IMG/VR virus record: IMGVR_UViG_3300017917_003583 | Coordinates: 1 to 64,000 of that record | DNA from: a virus | Reading direction: 5' to 3' (one strand) | DNA length: 64,000 bases | Shown here: piece by piece, positions 1,735-58,839 of the stretch | Layout: each line of letters starts with the position of its first letter | How positions within the stretch are numbered: the stretch's first letter is position 1 | Notes under the pieces: model-generated | Told to the model about the DNA's origin: nothing | What the model saw: the letters and a program-made list of their open reading frames with translations, nothing else | Databases searched by the model: none | Made by a program: the position numbers and the translations under genes

Positions 1735-2520
1735 TTACCGGTGATTTTGCACCGCTTGCAGCAGTTCTGGAGAAATTTGGTCAGGTATGAACGCCTGTAT
1801 CCGAACCATGCAGTCGCCGCGCTGGCCTTTGGTGTCCTGCAGACCCTGTCCTCGCAGTCTCAAAACCTGGGATGGTTGGCATCTAGGTGGAATGGTCACC
1901 ACCAGGTGATTGCCAGTAACGCTGGTCAGCGGCTGTTCGGATCCCAGCAGCAGATCCCAAATGCACACCCGAATTGTTGTGGACAAATTCAGTCCGTCAC
2001 GGTGCCAATCTGGGTTGGGCTTGATTTTGAACTGAGCCACCAGGTCCATGCCACCGGGGGCAATGCCTGGATATTGCACAGCATCGCCGTCATCCACGCC
2101 CATGGGTATTTTTATTTCGGCTGTGGTGGACCCAGCATCAGTTGATACCGAAATGGTTTTGGACACGCCGCGAGCTATGTCTTCAAGTGTGACCCACAAC
2201 AACACCCGCACATGGTTTCTTCTAGGCGGTTGTCTGAATTGGAAGCCGCCGCGCTCGAACATGTTGAATATATCATGTATGTTGCCTGGGCCACCTGCAC
2301 CCCCAAAATTGTGGAAATTGAATGTTTCGGGTGGACGGTCGTATTCGGCTCGTCGCGCAGGATCACTCAACACTGAATAAGCAGTCTGAATTTCCTGGAA
2401 CCGTGCGGTATCACCGCCGCGGTCAGGATGATGCTGACTGGCCAAACGGCGATAGGCCTGCTTGATTTCGTCTGGTGTGGCAGTGCGGCTCACACCCAGG
2501 GTTGCATAGTGGTCACTCAT
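1735..2520 (-). CDS. J-domain (DnaJ-like) co-chaperone
   Basis: N-terminal J domain with HPD motif (YRRLASQHHPDRGGD). The C-terminal part is not a canonical DnaJ. Confidence 0.8.
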   Translation of the reverse strand: MSDHYATLGVSRTATPDEIKQAYRRLASQHHPDRGGDTARFQEIQTAYSVLSDPARRAEYDRPPETFNFHNFGGAGGPGNIHDIFNMFERGGFQFRQPPRRNHVRVLLWVTLEDIARGVSKTISVSTDAGSTTAEIKIPMGVDDGDAVQYPGIAPGGMDLVAQFKIKPNPDWHRDGLNLSTTIRVCIWDLLLGSEQPLTSVTGNHLVVTIPPRCQPSQVLRLRGQGLQDTKGQRGDCMVRIQAFIPDQISPELLQAVQNHR

Positions 2521-25907: not shown

Positions 25908-26783
25908 TCACTTGGGGTTGACGTTCAAGAACGGTACAGTACCATTGGGGGTCATAGTGCTTGGGAGTTCGCCGTTCCAGCGTTCAGCAGTTACCAAGTT
26001 CACCAAGTTGGGGTTCTGTGCCAGAGCCCGACCACGTTGCTGAATAGCTTGTGCTTCGGCTTCACCTTTCAACTTGATAGATTCAGCTTCGGCTTTGGCC
26101 TGTGCCACTTGCGAATCAGCTGCCGCTTGTGCTTGAATCACCTTGATTTCAGCCTGCACCTTTTCACGTTCGGCGTTTTGCTGCACCTTCTGCACTTCAA
26201 CCTCGGCCAACATGCGTTGTTCGATGCTGTTTTCGTATGCTTCCGAGAAGTCAATATTCTCCAGCTGCACACTTTCCACGATCAAGGGCAAGCCAGTCAC
26301 AGCTTTCTGAATCGCCATCTGCACCTCAGCGCTGAGTCGTTCGCGCTCTTGAATTGCAGTTGCAGCGTTGAATCGACCAAACACGTTTTTCACTTCCTCG
26401 GGCACTTGACGATCCAGCAAGCGACTCACAATGCCTGCTTCACCGCCCCAGTCACTGTACACCGCTGTGACCTGATCAGCAGGGATGCGATAGTTCACGC
26501 TCAGTGCCATGGTCGCAGTTTGCTGGTCCTTGCTGTAGGCCATGACTTCGCCCCACACACGAGCCTGAGTCTGCACACTCATTTCCACCACAGTGTCCAC
26601 CAAGGGCAGTTTGAAGCCCAAGCCTGGCTCAGCAGTGCCCACCACCTGACCAGTGCGCAAGATCACGCCTCGCTGACCCTGATCCACAGTGTAGAAACTG
26701 CCACCTGCCACCACAACCACGATCAGTGCAATCAACACACCCACCACGATACTGACCGCTTTGCGAACATCATTCATCATCAT
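25908..26783 (-). CDS. SPFH / band-7 protein (HflC / prohibitin-like)
   Basis: N-terminal TM then an SPFH core (FYTVDQGQRGVILRTGQV...) and a long coiled coil. Start at MMMNDV 26783 with AAGGAGA RBS. Confidence 0.75.
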   Translation of the reverse strand: MMMNDVRKAVSIVVGVLIALIVVVVAGGSFYTVDQGQRGVILRTGQVVGTAEPGLGFKLPLVDTVVEMSVQTQARVWGEVMAYSKDQQTATMALSVNYRIPADQVTAVYSDWGGEAGIVSRLLDRQVPEEVKNVFGRFNAATAIQERERLSAEVQMAIQKAVTGLPLIVESVQLENIDFSEAYENSIEQRMLAEVEVQKVQQNAEREKVQAEIKVIQAQAAADSQVAQAKAEAESIKLKGEAEAQAIQQRGRALAQNPNLVNLVTAERWNGELPSTMTPNGTVPFLNVNPK

Positions 26784-26891
26784 TCTCCTTGGCGTCTGCG
26801 CCATTGAATCGAACCGTTTTAACCACCCACACACCACCGGCAACACACACAGCCGCCAACAGTGCAAGACCAATCAGAGACAAAACAAACA
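26769..26891 (-). CDS. 40-aa transmembrane peptide (possible NfeD-like partner of SPFH)
   Basis: MFVLSLIGLALLAAVCVAGGVWVV; GAGGTGA RBS; stop overlaps the SPFH start. Confidence 0.3.
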
Positions 26892-27785: not shown

Positions 27786-27814
27786 ATTATAGCACCAAAA
27801 TCTTTTTGTGTCAA
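27786..27814 (-). promoter_or_regulatory. promoter P4 (TTGACA-17-TATAAT)
   Basis: Drives lipoprotein 27246..27752; the -35 abuts a hairpin terminator. Confidence 0.65.
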
Positions 27815-27815
27815 A

Positions 27816-27831
27816 CGGGGCCCAAGCCCCG
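27816..27831 (-). terminator. hairpin terminator (CGGGGC-TTGG-GCCCCG then TTTG)
   Basis: Directly after the 29-aa peptide ORF and directly before the P4 -35. Confidence 0.4.
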
Positions 27832-27835
27832 TTGA

Positions 27836-27925
27836 TCACACCAAGCCGGTCACGAATGCAGCGAAAGTCACTGCCACGCCCAGAGCGAAATACACCACAC
27901 GACCTGCGATTGCCATTTTGTTCAT
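27836..27925 (-). CDS. 29-aa hydrophobic peptide
   Basis: MNKMAIAGRVVYFALGVAVTFAAFVTGLV, TGGAG RBS, promoter P5 upstream and a hairpin terminator downstream. Confidence 0.35.
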   Translation of the reverse strand: MNKMAIAGRVVYFALGVAVTFAAFVTGLV

Positions 27926-27987
27926 GCTGAACTCCAAAGAAAGAAAGTTAAAAAAACGTAGCGACACCGTTCACTACAATTTGTATT

Positions 27988-28016
27988 CTAGCACAACCGG
28001 TATTTTTGTGCAACCG
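27988..28016 (-). promoter_or_regulatory. promoter P5 (TTGCAC-17-TAGAAT)
   Basis: Upstream of the 29-aa peptide. Confidence 0.5.
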
Positions 28017-28035
28017 GCTGTGGCTAGTTTACAAC

Positions 28036-29106
28036 TCAGAACGCATCGTAGAAACGATACTGTTGTTTTGCTTGCACACGAGTCAACGTGACCACAGTGC
28101 CTTGATCCTCGAACACGAACCGGCCAGCCAGTGCATCCACTTTCAGCAGGTTGTGCATGGTCAAGGTCTTGAACACATACTTGGAGTCGTCGTTCTCGGG
28201 TTCGGGATCAAACGACACTTCGATGGGATTGTTGCCCAGGGGGTTGCCCTCAAAGGTGTCCCGGTATTCAATGGTCTTGCCCTGGTGCACCACTTCCATC
28301 TTGTATTCCGTACCACCGTCGAACTCGGCCTTGACGTTGAGCATGCGCAGGGCCTGCTGAGGAGTCTCGTCGTAGCGGTTCATTTCTTCAACCAGTGCTT
28401 TCAGCATGTCGAAGTTGAACTGTGAGAACATGCTGGAGATGGCGCAGATGCGATCAATATGGGTTTTGTTGACCAGATTGTCCTCGCAGTATTCACGGAT
28501 GAACTCAGGAGTCAAGCCAGTGAAGTCCAGCATGTAAAAGATGCGACCTGGGCGGTTGCGCATATGATAGTCCACACGATACTTGTCATTGCAAGTGAGA
28601 ATGAACAGTTTCTTGGTGGGATACACACCGTCCAGCAAAGTTAGGATGGCTTCCTGTTCGTCGCGGTCGTAGACCTTTTCGAATTCATCGAACAGGATCA
28701 CACAGGGCTGATCGATGCTTTGAATGAAGGTATTGAACTTCTCACCATGCCACGGCGCGTTGATCACGATGGTGGGCACATTGTGGTCACGTGCCAACAC
28801 CAAGCTGATGTTCTTGCTCAACAAGGTCTTGCCCGAGCCTTTTTCGCCAGTGAGCATGACACCAGTGCTGGCACTGCGACTCAAGAAGGTGTTGATCACA
28901 CGGTCGGTGTTGCGGAGGCAGTCACCGTACATCTTGGTGGGCAATGCAAACGAATCGATCATTTCCAGATACAACTCGCCGGTCATGTCGTTTTGTTTGA
29001 CCGTGTAGTTGCCTCCAGGCAGTGCATTGTGCAAGTCAATGGCTTCACGACGGGTCACGCGGAAAGTGTTGCCCGATTTCATGAAAAAGCTGTTGCCGTC
29101 AGTCAT
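28036..29106 (-). CDS. AAA+ ATPase (classic-clade)
   Basis: Walker A GEKGSGKTLL, Walker B VILFDEFEK, sensor-1 ILTCN, and Arg-finger region MRNRPGRI. Has its own promoter P6 and AAGGA RBS. Confidence 0.7.
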   Translation of the reverse strand: MTDGNSFFMKSGNTFRVTRREAIDLHNALPGGNYTVKQNDMTGELYLEMIDSFALPTKMYGDCLRNTDRVINTFLSRSASTGVMLTGEKGSGKTLLSKNISLVLARDHNVPTIVINAPWHGEKFNTFIQSIDQPCVILFDEFEKVYDRDEQEAILTLLDGVYPTKKLFILTCNDKYRVDYHMRNRPGRIFYMLDFTGLTPEFIREYCEDNLVNKTHIDRICAISSMFSQFNFDMLKALVEEMNRYDETPQQALRMLNVKAEFDGGTEYKMEVVHQGKTIEYRDTFEGNPLGNNPIEVSFDPEPENDDSKYVFKTLTMHNLLKVDALAGRFVFEDQGTVVTLTRVQAKQQYRFYDAF

Positions 29107-29143
29107 GTGCTGAATCCTTGTGATGTGTTGAAAACAGTGTGTA

Positions 29144-29172
29144 TTGTATAGCGCTTGGGAATATTTGTCAAG
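29144..29172 (-). promoter_or_regulatory. promoter P6 (TTGACA-17-TACAAT)
   Basis: Drives AAA+ ATPase 28036..29106. Confidence 0.65.
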
Positions 29173-29295
29173 TCATGTGCAGTTCAATCAGGTGCACTGC
29201 CAGACTCAACACCACGCCCAGCAAGGCCAGCACGGTCATGGTGTTGATGATGGTCCAGTTTTCAGGCAGTTTAGGTGGTTGCTGTTGTGACATAT

Positions 29296-29318
29296 GAAAA
29301 AGCCCGGTTGCCCGGGCT
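29296..29318 (-). terminator. rho-independent terminator after nadV
   Basis: On the minus strand: AGCCCGG-GCAA-CCGGGCT followed by TTTTT. Confidence 0.6.
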
Positions 29319-29325
29319 GTTGAGT

Positions 29326-30723
29326 TTAACCGCGAGCGTTGGCTCGGACTTGTTCAAACGAGATCTCGTTGTAAAGTTTTCCGTTCTCAAACACCTTCTG
29401 GAGAACATCGACGAATGGGCCAATGCCGCGATCAGTCCAACCGGTAGGTTGATTGACGGCACTAACATATTCGCCCCCACTACTCCAAAGGGTCACTCGG
29501 CCTGCTTTAGATTTCTTACCTGCGTCGGTAATAGGGTCCTTCTGGACATCCACCCAAGTTCCGTTGATACAGGCCGACGACGCCTTCATTGCGAACTTTT
29601 GGGTGTCTCGGTCCACTTGCTGTAGAAGGGCGCCGCCCATACCGAAAGCAATGTTGTCTGCACTCCAGCCCATAGCCATAAAGGCGCCCAGAATGCTGCG
29701 GATAGTGAGTTCATTAACTCCGTCTCCTTGGATGAGTCGAACATTGTTGAGGACACGGAATCCTTTTGAGTTGACGGTGTAGCCAAATTTTTCTCCTAAG
29801 ATTTCAACCAATCGACGGTTAACTTCAACAGGATCACCGGAATCAGGGCGAATAACAACGGTAGCACCACTATCAATAACAAGCTGGCGGAGATCTTCCC
29901 CCCAAAGTTTTGATGCGGCATTGAAAATATCGTAGCTGTCGCTAACCACGGCAACGATGCTACCAGATCGACCAAATTGACGAACCATGTTTTCATAGGC
30001 TTTTACTTCGTTGTCACGACCCCAGCTGGTGATGGTGCTGTGTTCTGCGGCAGGTATTGAGAATCCAGCAATACCAGCATTGTAGTATTCACGAGCAAAG
30101 AGAATACCAGAGATAGTATCAGTGCCCATGAAGTTAACCAAGTGGGCGGCTCCGCCGATACCAGCACTTTCAAGGCTAGAAACACCCCGAGCACCAAAGT
30201 CGTGCAGCTTGAAGTCAATAAGACCAGGATCACCAGTTTTCTCCAGGTATTCAGCAATCACTTGCCGGATTTTCCAACTCTGTGTTGCCACCGTGGTGGG
30301 ATACCAGATGGCACGAAGCAGGGCTGTTTCAAGCCAAGTGGTCAGCCAGAAGCATTCTGGGTCAGTGTTTTCGATTGTGGCCAGCACGTTCTTAACGGGC
30401 ACCACTGTTCCTTCGGGTACTGCTCGGATAACAACTGGAAGAAATCCATTGTGCCGGTCAAGAATGTATTGCCATCCTGCTCGGTTGAAAGGCTCACCGT
30501 GTGCGGTAAGTATTTCATCAGCGACGTCAATGTCAGCCTGGGTGATTGGTTCGAGTAGGTATTCTTTGATAAAGGCCTGGAGTCCAAAGAACACAGTCTT
30601 ATCGTAACGTCCTCCCCGGCTCTCAATATATGAATGGACACCTGTGGTACCTTGTGGCATCTGCTTCCACATACTAACTTTATAACTGTCAGTATTAAGA
30701 ATGATTGATTTTGAAAAAGACAT
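29326..30723 (-). CDS. nadV: nicotinamide phosphoribosyltransferase (Nampt / NadV)
   Basis: SIILNTDSYKVSMW N-terminus and full-length Nampt architecture. ATG at 30723 with AAGGAA RBS; the ORF-track start is an upstream GTG. Confidence 0.85.
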   Translation of the reverse strand: MSFSKSIILNTDSYKVSMWKQMPQGTTGVHSYIESRGGRYDKTVFFGLQAFIKEYLLEPITQADIDVADEILTAHGEPFNRAGWQYILDRHNGFLPVVIRAVPEGTVVPVKNVLATIENTDPECFWLTTWLETALLRAIWYPTTVATQSWKIRQVIAEYLEKTGDPGLIDFKLHDFGARGVSSLESAGIGGAAHLVNFMGTDTISGILFAREYYNAGIAGFSIPAAEHSTITSWGRDNEVKAYENMVRQFGRSGSIVAVVSDSYDIFNAASKLWGEDLRQLVIDSGATVVIRPDSGDPVEVNRRLVEILGEKFGYTVNSKGFRVLNNVRLIQGDGVNELTIRSILGAFMAMGWSADNIAFGMGGALLQQVDRDTQKFAMKASSACINGTWVDVQKDPITDAGKKSKAGRVTLWSSGGEYVSAVNQPTGWTDRGIGPFVDVLQKVFENGKLYNEISFEQVRANARG

Positions 30724-30775
30724 AAAAGTTCCTTTTATATAAAATGCCACCTGTCTATCCAGTGGACTTGTTGTT

Positions 30776-30804
30776 AGTATAGCACAGACTTATTTCTGTG
30801 TCAA
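30776..30804 (-). promoter_or_regulatory. promoter P7 (TTGACA-17-TATACT)
   Basis: Drives nadV; overlaps the 3' end of the HNH gene. Confidence 0.65.
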
Positions 30805-31569
30805 TACCTTACAATTGCCAAAATGCCACCTTGGCATCACAAGCATTGTTCCTTCCTTGCCACAATGTGGGCAAGTTACTTTTTTAGACTTTTCCTCTCG
30901 TAGTTGTTGTCTTTGCTCATCAGTCACTGGAGGTTTTTTACTTGGTTTGCCCAACAACCTTTGCCGCTGAGCTTCTTTTCTCTCATCAGTCCAAGCCCAG
31001 CCGTCGCGCTCTTTCATAGTTTTTTTACGCTGTTCTACAAGTTCTTGCGGTATTGGTTTGCCCTTCCAATATCCTTCTTTCCCTGTGTTTGCTAAACTCA
31101 TTTTAAATTTAGTTTCTTCGCTATGCCACGGTCCGTTTTTCTTTCTGCTTTCGGTTCTGGCTTTCACATGCTCTGGGTCTTGTTTCTTACCTTTAGCTGC
31201 TAACGATTTCTTCTGTTTAGCAACTTCGTCTGTGGAGACTCTGTGAGCGTGTGCTATCCGAAGTTGTTCATAAACTCGATTGGTTACCCGATAACGGGAG
31301 AACGCCTTGTTAGCACATGCCATTTTATATACAGCATGCACCATGCCAGACTCTGGATAAATCTTTGCCAAAAATCTATGAGCCATGAAATGTTCTCGGG
31401 CAGTTAGTGCTATTAGATTTTCGGGGTCGTCGGTCCCCCCAAAGCTCCTTGGAAGAATATGATGGGATTCTGTATAACCGGTAGGATCCCCTAATGCTCG
31501 CCTGTTAGCGATGAGATTCTCATACAATTTTTCGTAGTTCATATCAAGGTCCTTGTATTGATTGGACAT
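30790..31569 (-). CDS. HNH homing endonuclease
   Basis: ESHHILPRSFGGTDDPENLIALTAREHFMAH. ATG at 31569; TTGTATAAATAT lies immediately upstream. Confidence 0.8.
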   Translation of the reverse strand: MSNQYKDLDMNYEKLYENLIANRRALGDPTGYTESHHILPRSFGGTDDPENLIALTAREHFMAHRFLAKIYPESGMVHAVYKMACANKAFSRYRVTNRVYEQLRIAHAHRVSTDEVAKQKKSLAAKGKKQDPEHVKARTESRKKNGPWHSEETKFKMSLANTGKEGYWKGKPIPQELVEQRKKTMKERDGWAWTDERKEAQRQRLLGKPSKKPPVTDEQRQQLREEKSKKVTCPHCGKEGTMLVMPRWHFGNCKVLTQK

Positions 31570-31605
31570 ACTATATTTATACAATGCATGAGAATGCTGC
31601 TGTCT

Positions 31606-32049
31606 TTAACCCATTTCTGCGTCAACTGGTTTGGGCAAATTGCCGGTCTCTATTTTCCCATTTGGATAAAAAATGATATAAGGCGATTTCCGTTTCTTGG
31701 CGTAGGAGCAGGTGTACCAGGTGCCTCCCCGACTCTGCCACTCATCCTGCAGGGGAACCACAATCAACAGTTCAGTGTCCAGCACAATCTGCCGATCCCG
31801 GGCCAGGTAGTTGCGCACCTCTCGGATCTCGTCGCCACCAAAGAATCCCTGTTGTTCAGTCAGCCGTGGTGGGTGACACACAATACGCCAGCCCAGATGC
31901 CGAGCAATGGCAGCCACTTCAACATCCACACCGCGGCAATCGCCATGATGCAGTTCGTGCCCTGAACCCAGGCTCATGAGATACTCAGTGACCTGTTTCA
32001 ATTGCCTATCGTTTGCACCTTCTCGGGTGCCTGTTACTCCCACTCTCAT
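31606..32049 (-). CDS. SLOG-family (DUF2493/YspA-like) Rossmann nucleotide-processing protein
   Basis: VGVTGTREG...HHGDCRGVD pattern. Start at MRVGV, ATGA-coupled to the upstream small gene. Confidence 0.5.
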   Translation of the reverse strand: MRVGVTGTREGANDRQLKQVTEYLMSLGSGHELHHGDCRGVDVEVAAIARHLGWRIVCHPPRLTEQQGFFGGDEIREVRNYLARDRQIVLDTELLIVVPLQDEWQSRGGTWYTCSYAKKRKSPYIIFYPNGKIETGNLPKPVDAEMG

Positions 32050-32267
32050 GCGTTGCCCTTTGCTGGCCGAGCCACGTGGAACCAAGTCAGGTCTTGGGCC
32101 TGGGCAAACCTAAACTCAATGCCGTCCATGACATGATTGGCGCGAAACCGACCAGGCATGTTTTTGTGCAACCAACGGTGTGCATCAAGCGCCCCCTGCC
32201 CGCCCCAATAGAGAAAGGCTCTGTAAGGATAAGCTCGTTCCAGTTGGCGACGTTGACGGCTGTTCAT
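32046..32267 (-). CDS. hypothetical small protein
   Basis: ATGA-coupled upstream of the SLOG gene. C-terminal AQDLTWFHVAR faintly resembles the LRW family. Confidence 0.4.
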   Translation of the reverse strand: MNSRQRRQLERAYPYRAFLYWGGQGALDAHRWLHKNMPGRFRANHVMDGIEFRFAQAQDLTWFHVARPAKGNA

Positions 32268-32477
32268 GCTGCTGACTCCTCTAGGACAGTGACACTGATT
32301 TTCATTTGGCCGGTCTCAATCCGCAGGGATTCTCTTTGCACACTGAGCTGACACCACAGTATATGACCCTTCCACAACGGCTGCACTTGGGCTCTGGGTG
32401 ACCCTGGGCTGCATCAAACAGTTGCTTCGTCCTGTCCGCCGCAGCGCGGGCCCTTGTCATGGCTTGATCCTGGGGTG

Positions 32478-32951
32478 TCATTGCCCAAACTCCACCAGTG
32501 TCACTGTGCCCAGAGTCTCTGCATGCCGCACAGCAAATGCCTCCAACATGGCAATGATGCGTTCGCGATTGCCACCTGCCAAGCCCATGCCAATGTACGG
32601 GAAACCAATTCGAGTGCCCGGGAACTGTTGGGCCAGGGTGTCAAGAATGCGTTGGAAGCCTTCGTATTCAAACAGGTCGTCGGTCTTGCCTGGCCCGTTG
32701 AATCCGATCTGTGTGTATGCATTCACAATGGAAAACAGTTTACCTGGCAACAAGGTGAAAGTTCCAATTTTGCTGCGATCACCCCATTTTGTTTGCTTCA
32801 CGTCCACTTCGTAAGCACCTGGGTAGCGTAGACGAATCTCGCGGGCAATGCCTGACCCCATGGTGTGGAAGCAGTTGCATCCATGCACAATCAGGTTGAA
32901 GTCACCTGCCTGGGCCATGTCAATGAGATTGCCTCGTGCGTGTTTCAACAT
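32478..32951 (-). CDS. macro-domain protein (ADP-ribose binding / hydrolase)
   Basis: NLIVHGCNCFHTMGSGIAREI and GFPYIGMGLAGG glycine-rich macro motifs. Start at MLKHARG. Confidence 0.7.
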   Translation of the reverse strand: MLKHARGNLIDMAQAGDFNLIVHGCNCFHTMGSGIAREIRLRYPGAYEVDVKQTKWGDRSKIGTFTLLPGKLFSIVNAYTQIGFNGPGKTDDLFEYEGFQRILDTLAQQFPGTRIGFPYIGMGLAGGNRERIIAMLEAFAVRHAETLGTVTLVEFGQ

Positions 32952-32952
32952 G

Positions 32953-33213
32953 TTAGTGGTCTCCCCATTGGCTGGTGTTGTGGTCTGCGTTGCTGGGCGC
33001 ACGGTTGTTGGCGGCAAAGGCCAGTGGTTCTTCAACAAAGTTCACAGTGCAGCCAGTTAGATTAACTGTACGGACACTGGAGTGAACCCAGTCCTCGGTG
33101 CTCTCGACCAGTGAGAACGCAATGTTAGCCACTTTGCGACCAGTGTGTGCTTCCATGGCCTCGCGAATGAGATTTTTGAGGTCTTCCTGGTTGAGCTTTG
33201 CGCTCATGTTCAT
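32953..33213 (-). CDS. hypothetical small protein
   Basis: TAACATG-coupled to the macro gene. Start is ATG at 33213 or GTG at 33225. Confidence 0.4.
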   Translation of the reverse strand: MNMSAKLNQEDLKNLIREAMEAHTGRKVANIAFSLVESTEDWVHSSVRTVNLTGCTVNFVEEPLAFAANNRAPSNADHNTSQWGDH

Positions 33214-33237
33214 TTTGATATCCACGGTGTTCTCCTG

Positions 33238-33594
33238 TTAGGAAGTTTTGATGCCCAAGACCTGGCGTTCTTCTGGGGTAAGTTTGGCCAGTGCTGCCTC
33301 TCGCACTTGCTTGAGGCGCTCCTCTTCGCGATGTTTGGCATCCAGAATCTTGTGATCTTTGTGCCACTCGACCACTTGTGCTTTGGTAACACCAGCTTCC
33401 TTGAAGTTGATCCAATCGTAGAAGTCACCCGTCTTGGGGCTCACAGTTTCCACAAGGCTGTCCACATGTTCAAGTGCGGTCAAGGCCTGACACAGCACAC
33501 TCTCAGCAAATGCAATTTGCCGTTTGAGTGCAGGCTGGGTAACATCCCGGTAGTATTGTTCGGGGTGGTCGTCGTAGTAGTCTCTGCAGGGCAT
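33238..33594 (-). CDS. hypothetical protein (paralog of 39041..39412)
   Basis: AAAGGA RBS. C-terminal EAALAKLTPEERQVLGI matches ADALAKLSQEEREELGL of 39041..39412. Confidence 0.5.
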   Translation of the reverse strand: MPCRDYYDDHPEQYYRDVTQPALKRQIAFAESVLCQALTALEHVDSLVETVSPKTGDFYDWINFKEAGVTKAQVVEWHKDHKILDAKHREEERLKQVREAALAKLTPEERQVLGIKTS

Positions 33595-33595
33595 G

Positions 33596-33793
33596 TCAAT
33601 ATCCTTTCACAGTCACCTGATGATTGCATTCAGGACACTCGATGTATTTGATTACATCACGGTCACCAGTGTAGTCGCTGACGGTACGTTCTTTTATGTC
33701 TCTTGGTACATATTGTAACGTACATCCGCAATTTCTGCAAATGGTTTCTTTCACGACACTTTGGTGAGGGGTTCTAGATACAACAGTTACCAC
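33596..33793 (-). CDS. zinc-ribbon protein
   Basis: CRNCGC...CPECNH four-Cys ribbon; GTG start with TAAGGAC RBS. Confidence 0.45.
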   Translation of the reverse strand: MVTVVSRTPHQSVVKETICRNCGCTLQYVPRDIKERTVSDYTGDRDVIKYIECPECNHQVTVKGY

Positions 33794-33802
33794 GGCATGT
33801 CC

Positions 33803-33961
33803 TTAGAAAATGTATCGCATGAGAGCAGCACCGTTTAGGGCACTGGCAAACATGTTGAAATAGTAACCAAACGAGTTTTTGTTGTTTTGGCAGCGGCTGG
33901 CCACTCGCCAGCTGAACACCGCCAATGCCAAGTGCATCAAAATCAACAGTATCGAACTCAT
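33803..33961 (-). CDS. 52-aa membrane protein
   Basis: MSSILLILMHLALAVFSWRV. ATGA-coupled to the upstream gene, and preferred over the overlapping 33774..33980 frame. Confidence 0.35.
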   Translation of the reverse strand: MSSILLILMHLALAVFSWRVASRCQNNKNSFGYYFNMFASALNGAALMRYIF

Positions 33962-34317
33962 TTGAATATACCTGTTTCAAATTGGTTACTGATGTCTACA
34001 ATTTCATCAATGAGATTTTGATGGTTGGTCGGATCGTTCTCATTTTTTAATTTTTCGTGCAATTCAGAATACCTTTTGCTTAACGCACTGAATACGTTTT
34101 TATCTTTTGGTACATGAATCCATATGTATTCCTTCGCATCAATTTCCCAAACTCCGTCTTTTAGATATGGGGCAGACTCAGCACGCCACTCACGTCCCAC
34201 TTGAGTGCCATCATCATCAAACATGATGAAGAAATCGCCAACCGCAATGTCCGCTAATTGAACAGTGATGTGTTCACCACCTTGCCTTTTCTTTATAGTT
34301 CGTGAATTTACGTTCAT
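33958..34317 (-). CDS. hypothetical protein
   Basis: 119-aa ORF. Confidence 0.45.
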   Translation of the reverse strand: MNVNSRTIKKRQGGEHITVQLADIAVGDFFIMFDDDGTQVGREWRAESAPYLKDGVWEIDAKEYIWIHVPKDKNVFSALSKRYSELHEKLKNENDPTNHQNLIDEIVDISNQFETGIFK

Positions 34318-34511
34318 GATTCAACTCCAGAGTGAGTGTGATGATAGTCCATGCGCAGGTCTGACAAGGTCCAGTCTCGATACTGCCACCACGCACTGGT
34401 GCCAACGATCAAACCTTGACAAGCCGCTTCGTTGGTTCGGTGAGTGGCTTCTTCCCGCAAGGTGAGATTGACTTCTCGACCATACAAATGTTCAAACACC
34501 AGTTCTTTCAT
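34314..34511 (-). CDS. hypothetical small protein
   Basis: ATGA-coupled. Confidence 0.4.
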   Translation of the reverse strand: MKELVFEHLYGREVNLTLREEATHRTNEAACQGLIVGTSAWWQYRDWTLSDLRMDYHHTHSGVES

Positions 34512-34744
34512 GATTCAACTCCGAAATGTTGTTTAATCTTTTTATTCACAAAAACATAGTGTTTTGAATCAATCAATCCATCCGCCCATTGCGATCCAAC
34601 ATCAGCGCATTCCTGAACAATCAACTCGGCGAACTTTCTTGCCTTGGCCACACTGGCGTGGTCAGGTGTTATTGCTCCAGATGGCAGAGCATCCCATTGA
34701 ATCAGATCAGCCTGTTTGGCAAGTTCAAAAATTCGGTTGTTCAT
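34508..34744 (-). CDS. small protein, family 2 (MNxRIxEL...FAELIVQEC...KQHFGV)
   Basis: Family signature; TGACATG coupling to natV. Confidence 0.5.
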   Translation of the reverse strand: MNNRIFELAKQADLIQWDALPSGAITPDHASVAKARKFAELIVQECADVGSQWADGLIDSKHYVFVNKKIKQHFGVES

Positions 34745-34745
34745 G

Positions 34746-35765
34746 TCATGCACCAAGAAAGGTCATTAAGATTTCGAAGTGATCGTCAAAGCATTCTTCA
34801 CTCTTGACCTCTGCGATGGGAACCCAACGTGCCTTCTCTGCATCATCCTGACCCCGCACTCGGGGCAGTTCCCCGTCGGGCAGTTGAATGTAGAATGCAT
34901 GGGTTATTGTGCGCCCACGAGCGCTGCGATCCACAGCATCGAACACCCGACTGCGAACAATACTGCCGCGCAGTACAGGAGCAGGGACTTTGATTCCGGT
35001 TTCTTCACGCAGTTCACGAATCGCTGCGGCTTCCACACTTTTGTCAGTGTTGGCATTAACAAATCCTCCAGGTAGTGCCCACAGTCCTCGGCCAGGTTCG
35101 CTGCGGCGTTTGATCATCAATACATGCCCGCTTTGAATAACCACAGCATCCGCAGTGACAAAGATGGGTGGATAGGGCAGGCTTGCGTATTGCTTTTTGT
35201 AGTTGTCAATGAACTCACGTTCACGGATGATCTGCTCGAATTCTTCGCTCTTACGGAACTCCATGAGAAAATCGTAGGTAGTAGGTGGCACCACGTTCTT
35301 GATGAAGTTGCTGTTGAAACTACGCTTGAAGTAAAGACCCCGAATGTCCACAGCACTCAAGGGCTCGATTTCTTCCACGTTGACGGATTCCCACTGGGGG
35401 AACATGTCCAAGTAGAAGCTGGACTCGTCTTTTTTGTAGCCAATGATGGCGTCTTTGCGACCCAGGCAACGATACTTGCTCTGGATGCTCTGCACTCGCA
35501 CAGCCCAAGCCTGGTCGTTGTAGATGGTGTCGGTGTTGGATTCGATATGCACCTGCATGTTCAAGCCAGCAGTGGCACTACGAATCATTTGGCGACGTTC
35601 TTCAAATGTGAACGGGTTCTTGTAAGTGCGGGGCTGATTGGCACTGCCCACGATCACCACAAGATTGTCAGTCAGTGCAGTGCAGCGCTTGATGATTTCC
35701 AAGTGTGCATTGTGCAGGGGTTGGAAGCGTCCGATTAGAACAACGGAGTTATAGGGCTTAGACAT
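34746..35765 (-). CDS. natV: bifunctional NMN adenylyltransferase / Nudix hydrolase (NadM / NatV-type)
   Basis: N-terminal cytidylyltransferase motif VLIGRFQPLHNAH; C-terminal Nudix box GGFVNANTDKSVEAAAIRELREETGI. Start at MSKPYN with AAGGAGA RBS. Confidence 0.8.
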   Translation of the reverse strand: MSKPYNSVVLIGRFQPLHNAHLEIIKRCTALTDNLVVIVGSANQPRTYKNPFTFEERRQMIRSATAGLNMQVHIESNTDTIYNDQAWAVRVQSIQSKYRCLGRKDAIIGYKKDESSFYLDMFPQWESVNVEEIEPLSAVDIRGLYFKRSFNSNFIKNVVPPTTYDFLMEFRKSEEFEQIIREREFIDNYKKQYASLPYPPIFVTADAVVIQSGHVLMIKRRSEPGRGLWALPGGFVNANTDKSVEAAAIRELREETGIKVPAPVLRGSIVRSRVFDAVDRSARGRTITHAFYIQLPDGELPRVRGQDDAEKARWVPIAEVKSEECFDDHFEILMTFLGA

Positions 35766-35943
35766 TTTCAGTCTCCTTAACTGTGTATTCCAAAATTTCA
35801 TCGGCGCTGATGCTTTTATATTTCAAGGCCATCATAGCATACTCGCCGGCAACTTTGCCGGCCCATTGATCTGCGCTCATGCCCAAACTATTGTCATCGG
35901 GCACACTGACCAGAATCTTAACAGAGATTTCAAACTGTTTCAT
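35758..35943 (-). CDS. hypothetical small protein
   Basis: 61-aa ORF. Confidence 0.35.
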   Translation of the reverse strand: MKQFEISVKILVSVPDDNSLGMSADQWAGKVAGEYAMMALKYKSISADEILEYTVKETENV

Positions 35944-36296
35944 TTCATTCCTTCCAGTGCAGCAACTTTTTTGGCCAGGTCTTGTTGAATACGTGCAATC
36001 TCTGCCATGGCCCGTGCCTTGGCTTTTGAAACCAGTTCAGTAGTTTGAACCACTTGGGCTCGAACCTCAACCTCCAGGACTTCGATTCTCACAACATCCC
36101 GCCGCATATAGTCATCGCTGCCAAATGTGGGAATCTTGTCCAACGACTCAAAAGTTTTGAAGCGGTCGAAGAAAGGGCTCCAGTAGGGATAGCCCCCGCT
36201 GTGCGAGTCAGTGTCATAGTAGACACGTTTGCCCCCTTTGTCAACGGCCGACAAAGCATAAGTTTTCTTGATGGTGAATTCGGTAGACTCGCTCAT
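35940..36296 (-). CDS. hypothetical protein
   Basis: ATGA-coupled on both sides. Confidence 0.45.
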   Translation of the reverse strand: MSESTEFTIKKTYALSAVDKGGKRVYYDTDSHSGGYPYWSPFFDRFKTFESLDKIPTFGSDDYMRRDVVRIEVLEVEVRAQVVQTTELVSKAKARAMAEIARIQQDLAKKVAALEGMK

Positions 36297-36670
36297 TGCA
36301 GTTCTCCCAGTTCTTTGCGGGCCTTTTCCAGAGCCGCTTCAAGCTCCCGGACCCGTTGCTCTGCTGCCACACGACGGGCAGTGCTGTCTTTGTCGATTTT
36401 GACAGGAGCGCTCATGAGTCGGATATCGCCGCCTGCGCCCCAAGTCCAAAAGTTGGGCAAGGTCACAGCATAGGTCATAACGTCTTCCAACGTGCCCTCG
36501 AACATGCCTAGTTCGGGTTGATAGTGATGGCCACCAAAGTCACAGTTGGGGTCTTCGCCCAAGACCTTCCAGACACCAGTCTGGCTCATGCTGTACTTTT
36601 TGACCAGTTCGCGGCCACTGTAGGTTTTGAGGTATTGATCCAGGCGTTGCTGGGGTGTAAATTTTGACAT
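36293..36670 (-). CDS. hypothetical protein
   Basis: AAGGAG RBS; C-terminal coiled coil. Confidence 0.5.
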   Translation of the reverse strand: MSKFTPQQRLDQYLKTYSGRELVKKYSMSQTGVWKVLGEDPNCDFGGHHYQPELGMFEGTLEDVMTYAVTLPNFWTWGAGGDIRLMSAPVKIDKDSTARRVAAEQRVRELEAALEKARKELGELQ

Positions 36671-36693
36671 ACAAAACTCCTTTGTATAGTGAA

Positions 36694-36717
36694 AGCTAAG
36701 AGTCTATCTCTTAGCTA
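36694..36717. repeat. 9-bp inverted repeat AGCTAAGAG-tctatc-CTCTTAGCT in an intergenic leader
   Basis: Between 36740 and 36670, just upstream of an AAGGAG RBS. Confidence 0.5.
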
Positions 36718-36739
36718 TATGTCTATTTATCTTAGTGTA

Positions 36740-36937
36740 TCACACACCATTGTTTTTGTCAACAGGGTCCTGGCCACGCATGTCACGTTCTTGGTCGCGC
36801 CGCGCTGAAAATCTGCCCAAAAAGTAGCACAGTGCACCAACTGCTGCCATCCACAGTGCCACCCGGTAATCACCAGTGCGGCCCAGCATGGCAATGGAGC
36901 AGAACGCAATGTAGAATCCAGCAATCCAGTGAATCAT
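36740..36937 (-). CDS. small membrane protein
   Basis: Two TM helices; ATGA-coupled. Confidence 0.4.
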   Translation of the reverse strand: MIHWIAGFYIAFCSIAMLGRTGDYRVALWMAAVGALCYFLGRFSARRDQERDMRGQDPVDKNNGV

Positions 36938-49716: not shown

Positions 49717-50484
49717 TTACAACACACGCACAGCAACTTCTTGGTGGTCGCTGGCATATCCAATGTACTCGTATCGCACCTGGTGTGCTGCACAGTGTTC
49801 CTGCCAAGCACGATACTCATGCTTGCGCCAGGTGGCATGGTTCCAGTACTCGTTGAACAAGATCACAGTGCCCGGAACAATGTGCTGAGCAAACGCATTC
49901 AACACGGTCTGGGTACTGGAGTACAGGTCAGCATCAAGATGCAGCAAGGCAATGGGACGCTTGAGTTCTTGGGCGAACTTTGCTGCGGTGAACTCATCAA
50001 CAGTGGACTGATCCTGTGGCGGACGCGCACCAAACCAACCCTGCACCAAACGACAGTTGGGCTTGACATCGGGCAAGGGCTGCGCAAAGTGACCAGCTGG
50101 CAAGTCGTTGAATGCTTCGGGCAAGCCCTGCCAACTGTCAAAGCCCACAATTTCATGATCAGGCAACCAGTGTGCAAACTGGTTCAGAGTTCGTCCAGTT
50201 GCGGTGCCAAACTCCAGTATCACACCTTGACTCAGCAATTTGGGATCCAGCTGTGTTGTGGTGACCCAGTGATACAAGTCATAGTCGGTCACGCAGTCTC
50301 GCAGATCCTCAAGGTTGTTGTCCACCATGTACTGCCAAGTGGTTTCGGTGCCACGTAGTCGTCCCATGTGCCGAATGTTCATGACATCGGTGTGGTAGCC
50401 AAGGTCTTTGAGTGTTTGGCTATTTTCGCCATACCGCTGGCGCTGCAACTCTCGATCAAGTGCTCGGTGCTCGTTTGGATTCAT
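49717..50484 (-). CDS. class I SAM-dependent methyltransferase (TylF/MycF-like O-methyltransferase fold)
   Basis: ILEFGTATGRT SAM-binding loop, LHLDADLYSST, and ILFNEY. ATG at 50484; the ORF-track start is TTG. Confidence 0.65.
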   Translation of the reverse strand: MNPNEHRALDRELQRQRYGENSQTLKDLGYHTDVMNIRHMGRLRGTETTWQYMVDNNLEDLRDCVTDYDLYHWVTTTQLDPKLLSQGVILEFGTATGRTLNQFAHWLPDHEIVGFDSWQGLPEAFNDLPAGHFAQPLPDVKPNCRLVQGWFGARPPQDQSTVDEFTAAKFAQELKRPIALLHLDADLYSSTQTVLNAFAQHIVPGTVILFNEYWNHATWRKHEYRAWQEHCAAHQVRYEYIGYASDHQEVAVRVL

Positions 50485-50503
50485 AAAAACTTTCAAAATA
50501 ATG

Positions 50504-50785: not shown

Positions 50786-51886
50786 TTATAGCAGATCCAC
50801 CCGCTCCCATGGCAAGTGATCTTTGCCAAAGTGACCATAATTGGTGGTCGAGCTGTAGATGGGCCGGAACAGGTTAAAACGCTCGATGATACCCGCTGGT
50901 GTCAGGTCCACAAGGCCAGAAATCTTGTTGGTCAACTGTCTGCTAAGGGCAGCATCGTGAGTTTCTATATAGAAACTCATGGGTTGCTTGACGCCGATTG
51001 CATAGCTGACCTGGCATGTGGCCCAGGGTGCAGCACCACTGGCCACAATGTTCTTGGCAATGTATCGCATCATGTATGCTGCCGAGCGATCCACCTTGGT
51101 GGGATCCTTGCCCGAGAAGGCGCCACCACCATGCGGAGCGTAGCCACCGTAGGTGTCCACAATGATCTTGCGTCCGGTCACACCTGCATCGCCGTCGGGT
51201 CCGCCAATCACAAATCGTCCAGTGGGGTTGATGTAGAACTCGGTGTTGTTATCCACGTATTTCCCGGGCAGGAGAGCACGAATCATGGATTCCACTGCAC
51301 CACGCACCAGTTCAATATCCACGGCGTCACTGTGCTGAGTGCTGCATACCACCTTGGCAATACGCACCGGAACATTGTTGTCATCGTACTCAAACGTGAC
51401 CTGACTCTTGGCGTCTGGGCCCAGCCATTCAACTGTGCCATTGCGTCGCTGGCGAGCCAGCATGTCCACGATTCTGTGGCTCCAGTAGATGGCCGACGGC
51501 ATGTAGTTTTCGGTTTCATTGCAGGCATAGCCAAACATGAGACCTTGATCCCCGGCACCAAAGCTGTCAGTGCCCAGGGCGATGTCAGCAGATTGTCCGT
51601 GCAAGAGATTGGTCAGTTCCAGATTCTGCCAGTGGAATCCCGACTGCTCATATCCAATGCGCCGGACTGTTTCTCGCACGGCAGTTTCGACTTGGTCAAA
51701 ATCCAATGCACCTTTGTACTCTCCAGCCAGGACCACACGGTTGGTGGTCACCAGGGTTTCGCAGGCACACCGGTACGCAGGATTTTGATGCTGCATGACC
51801 AGATCCAACACTGCATCACTGATGGCATCGGCCACTTTGTCTGGGTGTCCTTCGGACACTGATTCTGATGTAAACAAATAACTCAT
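50786..51886 (-). CDS. metK: S-adenosylmethionine synthetase
   Basis: MSYLFTSESVSEGHPDKVADAISDAVLD N-terminus plus GGGAFSGKDPTKVDRS. Start at 51886 with AAAGGAA RBS. Confidence 0.85.
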   Translation of the reverse strand: MSYLFTSESVSEGHPDKVADAISDAVLDLVMQHQNPAYRCACETLVTTNRVVLAGEYKGALDFDQVETAVRETVRRIGYEQSGFHWQNLELTNLLHGQSADIALGTDSFGAGDQGLMFGYACNETENYMPSAIYWSHRIVDMLARQRRNGTVEWLGPDAKSQVTFEYDDNNVPVRIAKVVCSTQHSDAVDIELVRGAVESMIRALLPGKYVDNNTEFYINPTGRFVIGGPDGDAGVTGRKIIVDTYGGYAPHGGGAFSGKDPTKVDRSAAYMMRYIAKNIVASGAAPWATCQVSYAIGVKQPMSFYIETHDAALSRQLTNKISGLVDLTPAGIIERFNLFRPIYSSTTNYGHFGKDHLPWERVDLL

Positions 51887-51932
51887 GGGTTCCTTTTGGT
51901 TGAATTGAATGTTGCTGGCAACATGTGATTTA

Positions 51933-52638
51933 TTATTCCATGCCCAACAGCTGAAGTTTGTGGGCTTCGTAATAGCTGACGCCAGGCTGGCCGGGCATGC
52001 TTGAATGTCTGATCCACTCGGCTTTGACTCGGATGCGATTTGCCCGGTAGATGCTGCTGAGCAATTGAGTATGCTCTGGGCTGGTGCTCTTGACCATGAA
52101 CGGCGCGCCAGTTTCGGTATCACGGTACCAAAACACCGCGGTTTTGCTTTTGGAGGGATGGGTGCGAGTGTTTTTGCGATAGGGGCTGTACCAGGTCACT
52201 GGGGTTAGATCCACAGTGCTGTTGACCAGCAGGGCCGTGAGTGGAGTGCACACTGACATCACATGGTCGATACAGCGGTCTTCGTGATAAAAGTAAGGCA
52301 GCAAAACTGCCATGCCATGATCCACAGGATCCAGGGTCAATTCTTCGTTAAACCAGGCCAGGGCCTTGGTTCTAAACTCACTCAGTGTGTGCCCGCGCAG
52401 AGCTTGAATGGTCCACTTGTCCTGAAAGTAGCGGCGAACCATGTGTGCCACTTCTTCGAGAGTTTTGTCCTTTAGATCTGGCAGTGGTGTGCCCGGGCAG
52501 TTGCCAAGGTATGCTGACACACCGTCGATCATCATGGATTCCATGGTGGTGGAGTTTTTTCTAAACACACTGACGTCGTCATCCAAGTCCGCCGAAGGAT
52601 TCTGGAGCGTGATGGTCAGCTTGGAAAACACAGTGTTC
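51933..52638 (-). CDS. hypothetical protein
   Basis: Start at MNTVFSK. Confidence 0.45.
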
Positions 52639-58059: not shown

Positions 58060-58839
58060 TCAGCTGCGAGTGAGTCGGTGAATTTCTTGGTCAATGGCAG
58101 ATAGCTGCTGCTGAATCAAGCGGCGAGCAGTGGCCAAGCGCTGTTGTTTGGTCTTTGATCCCATGACCACAACCACAAACTCCTGGCCGCGATAGTTCAG
58201 CAACAAGGCCACACATCGCCCGGCTGCTTGAGTAAATCCTGTTTTGCTGAACAGCACATGGTCTTCATGGTCCAGGAGGTCTCGGTTGGTGTTGAGCAAG
58301 GTCACGCGCTGTCGCGGTGTCTCGATCACTGCAGGCGACAGCACACTGAGTCGAGCCAGTTCAGGATACTGTGCAATGGTCATGACCAAGACCACAACTT
58401 CCGAGGCTGTGCTCACGTTGTTGCGATCCAGACCGCTGGCATCGGCGAATCTAGTGTGAGTCAGGCCCAGTTCCTGCGCTCGGCGGTTCATGGCCTGAAC
58501 AAATGCAGTTCGCCCACCAGGATAATCACGCGCCAGCTGTTCGGCTGCAGCGTTGTCACTCTTGACCAACACACTTGCAAACAGGTCACCGCGTGTGACT
58601 GGGCCGGGGGGCAGTCGTGTGCCACGCGCAGCGGTCATGGGCTGGGCTAGATTGGGATTGTGCTCGTAAGCCACAATGGCAGTCATGATCTTGGTCAGGC
58701 TGGCCATGGGTCGCGGCGGCTGGCTATCACTGCTGTTGACCACAACACCTCGGTTGACACTGTAAACCTGCGTGACTTCGGCAGTGGCGGTTGAACGCCA
58801 CAACATCAACATCGCCAAGATCCATTTGAAAAAATTCAT
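58060..58839 (-). CDS. S11-family D-alanyl-D-alanine carboxypeptidase (PBP5/DacA-like) with signal peptide
   Basis: SLTKIMT (SxxK), SDN, and KTG triad; embedded in the LRW array. Confidence 0.75.
   Translation of the reverse strand: MNFFKWILAMLMLWRSTATAEVTQVYSVNRGVVVNSSDSQPPRPMASLTKIMTAIVAYEHNPNLAQPMTAARGTRLPPGPVTRGDLFASVLVKSDNAAAEQLARDYPGGRTAFVQAMNRRAQELGLTHTRFADASGLDRNNVSTASEVVVLVMTIAQYPELARLSVLSPAVIETPRQRVTLLNTNRDLLDHEDHVLFSKTGFTQAAGRCVALLLNYRGQEFVVVVMGSKTKQQRLATARRLIQQQLSAIDQEIHRLTRS

Follow-up and report, generated by a model that had tools for sequence, protein, structure and literature searches.

The NARP2 cassette of an IMG/VR virus carries a conserved macro gene of the Adpp family and a shared two-hairpin RNA leader

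Depletion of nicotinamide adenine dinucleotide (NAD+) is among the commonest anti-phage strategies of bacteria, and NAD+ reconstitution is the answer of phages to it. One such system, NARP2, represented by NadV and NatV of Vibrio phage KVP40, was described without a macro gene or an ATPase, and is reported to be toxic and metabolically costly (bioRxiv 10.1101/2024.02.11.579819). Another, NARP1, is challenged by the RES-domain defence aRES, which cleaves NAD+ to nicotinamide and ADP-ribose-1''-phosphate, a product that NARP1 is unable to use; 15% of NARP1 operons contain a Poa1p-like macro protein, Adpp, and in Vibrio phage Gary this protein converts ADP-ribose-1''-phosphate into ADP-ribose (ADPR) and restores the NARP1 counter-defence, a function abolished by the H24A mutation (bioRxiv 10.64898/2026.01.28.702374). 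Here we analyse a stretch of 64,000 nt ("the window") of the virus record IMGVR_UViG_3300017917_003583, where an island at about 28.0-36.7 kb is the known system NARP2, with the gene of a predicted Adpp-type macro phosphatase (hereafter Macro) as a conserved third gene and with a common structured RNA leader (Table 1).

The core of the island has the same two enzyme families, with the same predicted chemistry, as the NARP2 of KVP40. NadV is a nicotinamide phosphoribosyltransferase (Nampt; Pfam NAPRTase 1.5e-64 and NAMPT_N 3.2e-27; NCBIfam NF006629 with 649 bits at a cutoff of 405), and NatV combines a nicotinamide mononucleotide (NMN) adenylyltransferase (NMNAT) with a Nudix hydrolase in the NadM arrangement (CTP_transf_like 4.7e-15 and NUDIX 2.9e-21; NCBIfam NF003786 with 397.4 bits, just above the cutoff of 397). 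By homology to families in which these reactions are established, NadV would convert nicotinamide and phosphoribosyl pyrophosphate (PRPP) into NMN, and the NMNAT domain of NatV would form NAD+ from NMN and ATP. A sequence-only reading of this DNA had proposed such a pair, 4 kb apart on one strand, and both proteins indeed pass the curated cutoffs. All six genes named in that reading are present on the minus strand, at or within a few codons of the positions then proposed, and the open reading frame (ORF) list places every credible gene of the 28.0-36.7 kb region on this strand.

To place the cassette among its relatives we used 208 related loci (L001-L208), which were searched with all window proteins, duplicates being dropped by gene sequence. 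IMG/VR holds hundreds of related contigs, the longest of 364 kb, and the identity of NatV across about 100 viral contigs is 70-88%; among 50,697 phage records the island found no match by megablast, and distant blastn gave matches at the level of single genes only. NatV and NadV are linked in 82 of the 85 unique loci. The compactness of this arrangement differs from KVP40, where natV does not lie within 6 kb of nadV, and the presence of a conserved macro gene and a common structured leader distinguishes it from NARP2 as described.

Macro is located upstream of NadV in 62 of the 85 unique loci (about 73%), in 61 of them in the order NatV-Macro-NadV, and it is the sole gene retained in the NatV-NadV interval. 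These 61 cassettes have a median gap of 406 bp between NatV and Macro and of 104 bp between Macro and NadV. The corresponding distances in the window, 1.8 kb and 1.76 kb, are among the largest, so the island was rightly called "expanded" in the sequence-only reading; mobile and variable genes probably enlarged the NARP2 cassette in this genome. Where NatV directly adjoins Macro in the relatives, just 5-9 bp separate the two genes.

The identity of Macro was traced through its family, its fold and its likeness to Adpp. The window protein gives no Pfam match of its own, and the macro domain that had been expected there is supported instead by phrog_335 (5.5e-40), by matches to PF01661 among some of its 2498 homologues, several of which are named O-acetyl-ADP-ribose deacetylase by one source, and by the predicted fold. 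The AlphaFold model (pLDDT 93) finds Poa1p, DarG and TARG1 as the top PDB matches in Foldseek, and Poa1p (PDB 6lfq, 6lfr) is the best PDB match in both sequence and fold, at an identity of only about 22%. Similarity to the phage proteins is higher: 32% identity (E 1e-17) to the Adpp of Gary and 34% (E 1e-20) to the NARP1-associated macro protein of phage PN09. The motifs H-x-CNC, GxGIA, GD(K/R)SK(L/I)G, Y(T/G)Q and IGxGLAGG are common to Macro and the Adpp sequences in Table S1 of bioRxiv 10.64898/2026.01.28.702374, and the ADPR-binding GxG loop is recognisable in the conserved CNC...GSGIA and IGMGLAGG segments. Macro H23 aligns with H24 of Adpp and H23 of Poa1p, and the nearly invariant T30 aligns with S30 of Poa1p. 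Judged from these alignments, Macro plainly belongs to the same family as the Adpp of Table S1.

The structural resemblance to DarG and TARG1 (both among the top matches, E about 2e-8) and a weak PADLOC match to DarG (2.7e-4) suggest another function, namely that Macro is a glycohydrolase which strips ADPR from DNA or protein and so opposes DarT or other ADP-ribosyltransferase defences. All these proteins have a common ALC1-like macro fold; however, the DarG motif TKK, which contains the catalytic lysine, aligns with T80-Q81-I82 of Macro, and Q81 is invariant in 34 family members. The catalytic lysine is K80 in DarG and K84 in TARG1. Since this lysine is replaced by an invariant glutamine, which is also present in the validated Adpp proteins, and Poa1p is the better match in sequence as well as structure, a DarG-like role is very unlikely. 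This disfavours the idea in the sequence-only reading that Macro reverses DarT-type DNA ADP-ribosylation, while its more general suggestion, that Macro handles ADPR-derived products, is plausible in view of the 32-34% identity to validated Adpp proteins.

With moderate confidence we therefore read the island, from its homologies, as a cassette for NAD+ reconstitution of the NARP2 type that includes a single conserved accessory enzyme, the macro protein, as an Adpp/Poa1p-type phosphatase. Macro would convert ADP-ribose-1''-phosphate, arising from RES-type NADases such as aRES or from 2'-phosphotransferase reactions, into ADPR, and would feed it to the Nudix domain of NatV for recycling towards PRPP. 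Nudix domains of the NadM type split ADPR into AMP and ribose-5-phosphate, the latter of which re-enters PRPP synthesis, and by homology the same reaction is expected of NatV, in line with the NCBIfam family names and with PMC9503650. Thus, AMP and ribose-phosphate would be recovered, a dead-end or toxic metabolite removed and the PRPP drain of NARP2 eased, while NadV and NatV rebuild NAD+. Yeast Poa1p serves the clearance of a tRNA-splicing by-product, whereas here the predicted setting is a viral NAD pathway.

The closest parallel is NARP1-AP (Adps-Adpp-Namat), in which the same macro family also lies between two synthesis genes and whose H24 is conserved in the window protein (bioRxiv 10.64898/2026.01.28.702374). 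The partners differ, being Adps and Namat there and Nampt and NMNAT-Nudix here. Since the Adpp family is embedded in the non-homologous NARP1 operon, it provides independent evidence for a tie between this family and NAD+ rebuilding. A further difference is that NARP1-AP needs the phosphatase to supply its ADPR substrate, while NARP2 does not use ADPR.

Several observations weigh against this assignment. NARP2 alone cancels aRES, and ADPR is not its substrate (bioRxiv 10.64898/2026.01.28.702374); because of this we can only infer a selective benefit of Macro, and this benefit must differ from that in NARP1, for instance by Nudix recycling or detoxification. The position of Adpp H24 is occupied by Gln in 55 and by His in 15 of 71 NARP2-linked related macros; unlinked homologues mostly have His (19 His and 4 Gln, n=23), as does the window protein. 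The macro family occurs in 2437 isolate phage records, often far from NAD genes (pf16, RSP15, Tk.4 of KP15), no macro was found within 8 kb of NatV in four distant NARP2 isolates (RsoM2USA, DSS3_MAL1, Marzo and phiRSL1), and a NadV tree requires at least 12 changes in the presence of the macro gene.

Such a distribution would also suit a gene for general ADPR processing in phages, of the T4 Tk.4 type, which sits in an accessory-gene hotspot uncoupled from NAD+ synthesis and might clear tRNA-repair by-products or host ADPR signals. This assumption is supported by the mostly unlinked occurrence of the family and its frequent changes on the NadV tree, by the accumulation of variable ORFs, a SLOG gene and an HNH gene in the NatV-NadV interval, and by RSP15 and Pumpernickel, whose macro homologues have RNA ligase or RtcB genes nearby. 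A hotspot, however, does not readily account for the retention of Macro alone in about three quarters of the intervals, for its tight junction with NatV where the two are adjacent, or for the independent embedding of the family in NARP1 operons, which require it. Moreover, the distant lineages L022, L024 and L039 also have Macro within 1.5 kb of NadV or NatV, and the Pfam matches in the rest of the window include no Tpt1/KptA or RNA ligase family. We consider a general Tk.4-type gene unlikely on balance, though it deserves to be kept in mind. Tk.4 of the Klebsiella phage KP15 (L219, 8496..8969) is itself a member of this Adpp-like macro family, and KP15-like phages have it 3.5 kb from natV, with tk and the lysis-inhibition gene rI between them.

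Returning to the Adpp-type reading, recruitment of one family to NARP2 and NARP1 alike raises the question of what the removal of ADP-ribose-1''-phosphate adds if NARP2 alone beats aRES. The candidate gains, which are recycling of ribose-phosphate and AMP via the NatV Nudix domain, PRPP relief and detoxification, are all directly testable. The island had been called undescribed, which holds in part: macro genes are known from NARP1 (bioRxiv 10.64898/2026.01.28.702374), and co-occurrence of Macro, SLOG and Nudix is known from PMC9503650, but we found no report of the NARP2 and macro combination in the literature, and it is absent from the texts of the 2026 preprint and the NARP2 paper. Since Adpp was described as an ADP-ribose-1''-phosphate phosphatase of NARP1 operons, the macro gene inside NARP2 represents an undescribed counterpart.

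The second common feature of the cassette is an RNA leader, which is best considered together with the promoters. The natV-operon promoter-like site precedes the small genes that open the natV operon, and nadV has a promoter-like site of its own and an intrinsic terminator directly after it, as had been claimed. The genes would accordingly form two transcription units, one with the small genes, NatV, Macro and, in this genome, SLOG and HNH, and the other with NadV. A nadV promoter with a hairpin in its spacer recurs in 27 of 34 related Macro-NadV intergenic regions, and each of the 42 NadV-AAA intergenic regions inspected has a strong hairpin, frequently within the -35/-10 spacer. GC-rich hairpins such as TTGACAGGACCTCCGGGTCCTGTTATAAT between the -35 and -10 hexamers of promoter-like sites are seen in the window at 29143..29318 and 30776..30804 and in the NadV-AAA and Macro-NadV intergenic regions of about 75 related loci; given this location, one element could be the terminator of the upstream gene and the promoter of the next.

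Each of the two units begins with a bipartite leader. In the nadV leaders of the window and its relatives, the stem of hairpin 1 varies while its G-AUAGA-C top is invariant. Among 57 unique nadV leaders, its pairing reaches 86.7% of cells compared with 63.9% in shuffles, and compensatory double changes occur in 87 cells compared with 26 ± 3.7; none of 500 shuffles reached the observed values. Sliding the partner columns as a control gives at most 42% pairing, and RNAalifold independently predicts the same helix. Hairpin 2, which was mis-registered by MAFFT and hence scored by a script and not by the pair counter, encloses the Shine-Dalgarno sequence and extends to or across the AUG in 57 of 57 leaders, with 23 stem variants carrying compensatory changes.

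The motif is closely tied to the NARP2 genes. When 3.36 Mb of loci were scanned for it strictly, 85 unique hairpins emerged: 54 lie within 90 nt upstream of NadV, 16 within 90 nt upstream of NatV, nine ahead of the small gene that opens the NatV operon and six elsewhere, three of which also precede a NadV-type start. The 64 kb window has exactly two copies, one ahead of nadV and the other ahead of the 125 aa gene (start at 36670) that opens the natV run. A covariance model built from nadV leaders alone recovers just these two sites in the window, the natV-operon site scoring E 1.7e-4 when 617 kb were searched. Of 22 local gene starts, only the two behind these leaders have a hairpin that sequesters both the Shine-Dalgarno sequence and the start codon; the leader of the AAA+ gene has neither the NARP2 motif nor a sequestering hairpin. 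An Rfam 15 scan of 27800..36400 with E up to 1, covering the nadV leader and not 36665..36728, gave no match. The two-hairpin leader, both stems of which show strong covariation, is previously undescribed and almost exclusive to these genes.

We suppose that the leader is a candidate translational operator co-regulating both NARP2 units, a view that we hold at slightly less than even confidence. The first hairpin and the Shine-Dalgarno-sequestering second hairpin would together gate the translation of NadV and of NatV-Macro, so that a common element at the start of each unit probably sets both jointly. As in fourU-type RNA thermometers and T4 translational operators, an AAAG of the Shine-Dalgarno region is paired in hairpin 2 with a run of CUUU, and the structure extends to the start codon. 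Unlike them, hairpin 2 is coupled to the upstream G-AUAGA-C hairpin and is confined to NAD salvage genes. The operator reading fits NARP2 because the system is reported to be toxic and costly: the leader would hold back a toxic, PRPP-consuming pathway until it is needed. Candidates for a trans-acting factor are a protein of the cassette, an RNA-binding protein or RNase of the host, temperature and a NAD-related ligand. The leader suggests control of a costly pathway by phages at the RNA level through a compact, gene-specific motif and, if this is true, leader and Adpp-like macro would together define a regulated "NARP2-AP" module.

In the distant isolate DSS3_MAL1, GGATAGACC hairpins and Shine-Dalgarno hairpins were seen by eye before both natV and nadV; these GC-rich leaders were missed by the covariance model built from nadV leaders. 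Marzo and RsoM2USA have the Shine-Dalgarno hairpin only. In the distant NARP2 loci L022 and L024 another motif, TTAGATGCnnTGATGC, is located just before the Shine-Dalgarno sequence, ahead of NatV in L022 and of NadV in both, and this lineage may have a common leader of its own.

Table 1. Coordinates of the NARP2 island, its leaders and other genes in the window (bracketed lengths are those of the encoded proteins)
Feature	Position	Strand	Basis
Classic-clade AAA+ ATPase, conserved phage backbone gene	28036..29106	-	PF00004, phrog_2376
AAA+ promoter-like site, TTGACA, 17 nt, TACAAT	29143..29171	-	11/12 consensus positions
Intrinsic terminator directly after nadV, AGCCCGG-GCAA-CCGGGCT then TTTTT	29301..29318	-	hairpin and T-run
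NadV, nicotinamide phosphoribosyltransferase (Nampt)	29326..30723	-	Pfam, NCBIfam
Bipartite nadV leader	30718..30779	-	covariation, covariance model
nadV hairpin 2, TATAAAAG-GAA-CTTTTATG, over Shine-Dalgarno and ATG	30739..30721	-	
nadV hairpin 1, CCACTG-GATAGA-CAGGTGG	30765..30747	-	
nadV promoter-like site, TTGACA, 17 nt, TATACT, with TG; hairpin in spacer	30776..30804	-	11/12 consensus positions
Freestanding HNH-NUMOD3 homing endonuclease, between SLOG and nadV promoter	30790..31584	-	HNH and NUMOD3, phrog_655
SLOG-fold protein (YAcAr/DprA/LOG-like Rossmannoid)	31606..32049	-	fold; Pfam below cutoff
Two poorly conserved small ORFs, Macro to SLOG	32302..32481 (59 aa), 32046..32267 (73 aa)	-	
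Macro-domain protein, Adpp/Poa1p family, predicted ADP-ribose-1''-phosphate phosphatase	32478..32951	-	phrog, fold, Adpp homology
Variable small ORFs, NatV to Macro	34508..34756, 34314..34511, 33958..34317, 33596..33793 (zinc-ribbon-like), 33238..33594, 32953..33225	-	
NatV, bifunctional NMN adenylyltransferase and Nudix hydrolase (NadM type)	34746..35765	-	Pfam, NCBIfam
Three small overlapping genes opening natV operon	36293..36670 (125 aa), 35940..36296 (118 aa), 35758..35943 (61 aa)	-	
Bipartite natV-operon leader	36665..36728	-	motif scan, covariance model
natV-operon hairpin 2, TATACAAAG-GAG-TTTTGTATG, over Shine-Dalgarno and ATG of first gene	36688..36668	-	
natV-operon hairpin 1, AGCTAAGAG-ATAGA-CTCTTAGCT	36716..36694	-	
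natV-operon promoter-like site, TTGACA, 17 nt spacer, TACACT	36734..36762	-	read from sequence, 10/12 consensus positions
DnaJ chaperone	1735..2520		
SPFH/band-7 protein	25908..26873		
SAM-dependent methyltransferase-like gene	49717..50496	-	
S-adenosylmethionine (SAM) synthetase	50786..52123	-	three MetK domains
D-Ala-D-Ala carboxypeptidase	58060..58839		

The ATPase gene downstream of nadV (PF00004 4.4e-09; phrog_2376 1.6e-91) calls for a different treatment. Its best PDB sequence matches are the D2 domains of p97, NVL and Cdc48, which assigns it to the classic AAA clade. In the sequence-only reading, macro, SLOG and AAA+ proteins were proposed to act with NadV and NatV as one extended, five-part module. 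This is favoured by 46 of 74 unique loci in which AAA+ follows NadV at a distance of no more than 1 kb, by the Adpp-like macros of Pumpernickel, PD06, nieznany and Atu_ph07, which lie 1-17 kb from an AAA+ homologue, and by the recurrence of Macro-SLOG pairing among the relatives and in PMC9503650.

The genomic context of AAA+ speaks against it. The gene has its own promoter, as had been noted, and this promoter stands behind the nadV terminator, here and in the relatives, with no common leader. NadV lies upstream in 46 of 85 AAA loci; in the other 39 (about 46%) it is missing, and AAA+ is located beside rIIA-rIIB. Neighbour clustering yields a recurrent trio in which AAA+ is joined by genes for proteins of 722 aa and 334 aa, the former being RIIA (phrog_612, 1e-131) and the latter RIIB (phrog_609, 2e-79); some contigs have the NAD cassette between rIIB and AAA+, and in others rIIA-rIIB-AAA+ are contiguous without NAD genes. 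The AAA+ family has more than 5300 homologues and is present in 396 isolate phages, including rV5/phi92-like, CBB-like jumbo, Herelleviridae and crAss-like phages. CBB has 216 kb between AAA+ and natV; the neighbours of AAA+ are unrelated or replication genes in Deep Blue, Sw5 and cr113_1, and replication or nucleotide-metabolism genes in Herelleviridae and crAss-like phages.

Since AAA+ forms a separate transcription unit, occurs in the rIIA-rIIB context without NAD genes and is widespread elsewhere (eight distant isolate lineages were sampled), it is an unrelated neighbour to be dropped from the model. With SLOG near NadV in just three of 77 loci, the five-part module is hardly credible; of the three proposed additions, only Macro holds. 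Removing AAA+ averts a misleading "five-gene system" annotation and flags a widely conserved ATPase as a separate puzzle.

The co-localisation of AAA+ and macro genes was found in four of six samples from Gram-negative phages and actinophages, two of the positives coming from one phage subfamily, and was not seen in CBB, LAh_8, Herelleviridae or crAss-like phages; because the sample is too small, this is only a weak lead. Adpp-like macros at 1-5 kb from AAA+ are those of Pumpernickel (a weak match), PD06 and Atu_ph07. In Atu_ph07 AAA+ is directly followed by ClpP. Conservation of the window AAA+ gene is unusually high: over 540 nt, 72% of its nucleotides are identical in an actinobacteriophage gene inside a tRNA array.

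The SLOG assignment, which had been put forward together with Macro, is borne out by the fold and not by Pfam, where YAcAr scores 19.9 bits against a cutoff of 28.2; 13 of 34 homologues independently match YAcAr, also below the cutoff. The model (pLDDT 88.7) has molybdenum cofactor (Moco) carrier protein, DprA, TM1055, LOG and ShosA as top matches (E 5e-5 to 2e-3), and the conserved motifs GxTGTREG, HHGDCxGVD, RDRxIV and GGTWYT point to a nucleotide-binding SLOG. When present in the cassette, SLOG lies directly downstream of Macro (L044, L054, L012, L113); L205 has SLOG without Macro, and in L137 SLOG is directly followed by NadV. Most likely, SLOG is a sporadic, occasional add-on which binds or processes a nucleotide.

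The adjacency of Macro and SLOG fits the pairing reported by Iyer et al. 2022 (PMC9503650), the accessible text of which describes the co-occurrence of Macro, SLOG and Nudix in phages. The same text places NADAR domains beside NadM and NadV and predicts action on soluble ADPR derivatives. This portion names NADAR, not Macro, as the NadM/NadV neighbour and contains no NatV-Macro-NadV cassette or leader.

The homing endonuclease proposed between nadV and SLOG was recovered with both HNH and NUMOD3 domains (phrog_655, 6e-53). It is located just upstream of the intact nadV promoter and leader, and no HNH gene occupies this position among the related cassettes examined, as expected of a freestanding homing endonuclease. 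We conclude that it is a selfish insertion.

The small genes are less informative. The three that open the natV operon overlap by 4 bp with one another and with natV, and their PHROG matches are all of unknown function; in 14 loci the one of 118 aa recurs upstream of NatV. The small ORFs between NatV and Macro match no Pfam family at its cutoff and are patchily conserved, in 5-14 loci each, and PADLOC and NCBIfam added nothing for the small ORFs. The 82 aa protein at the NatV end of this run belongs to a small multi-copy family, with up to five or six tandem or dispersed copies in some related contigs (L144, L130, L139). Other NARP2 phages have a different small gene between NatV and NadV, of 152 aa in the Ralstonia phage phiRSL1 (L223, 9105..9563) and of 102 aa in DSS3_MAL1 (L221, 9050..9358), and neither resembles the macro protein at a detectable level.

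tRNA genes were looked for in the 64 kb window and not found. Further matches in it, their ORFs not being mapped, are to PhoH, an Fe/Mn superoxide dismutase and a second NUMOD3 endonuclease. Also encoded are a D-Ala-D-Ala carboxypeptidase, a DnaJ chaperone and, just downstream of the AAA region, an SPFH/band-7 protein. The SAM synthetase gene is directly followed by the methyltransferase-like gene, and this pair is possibly another metabolite-supply module.

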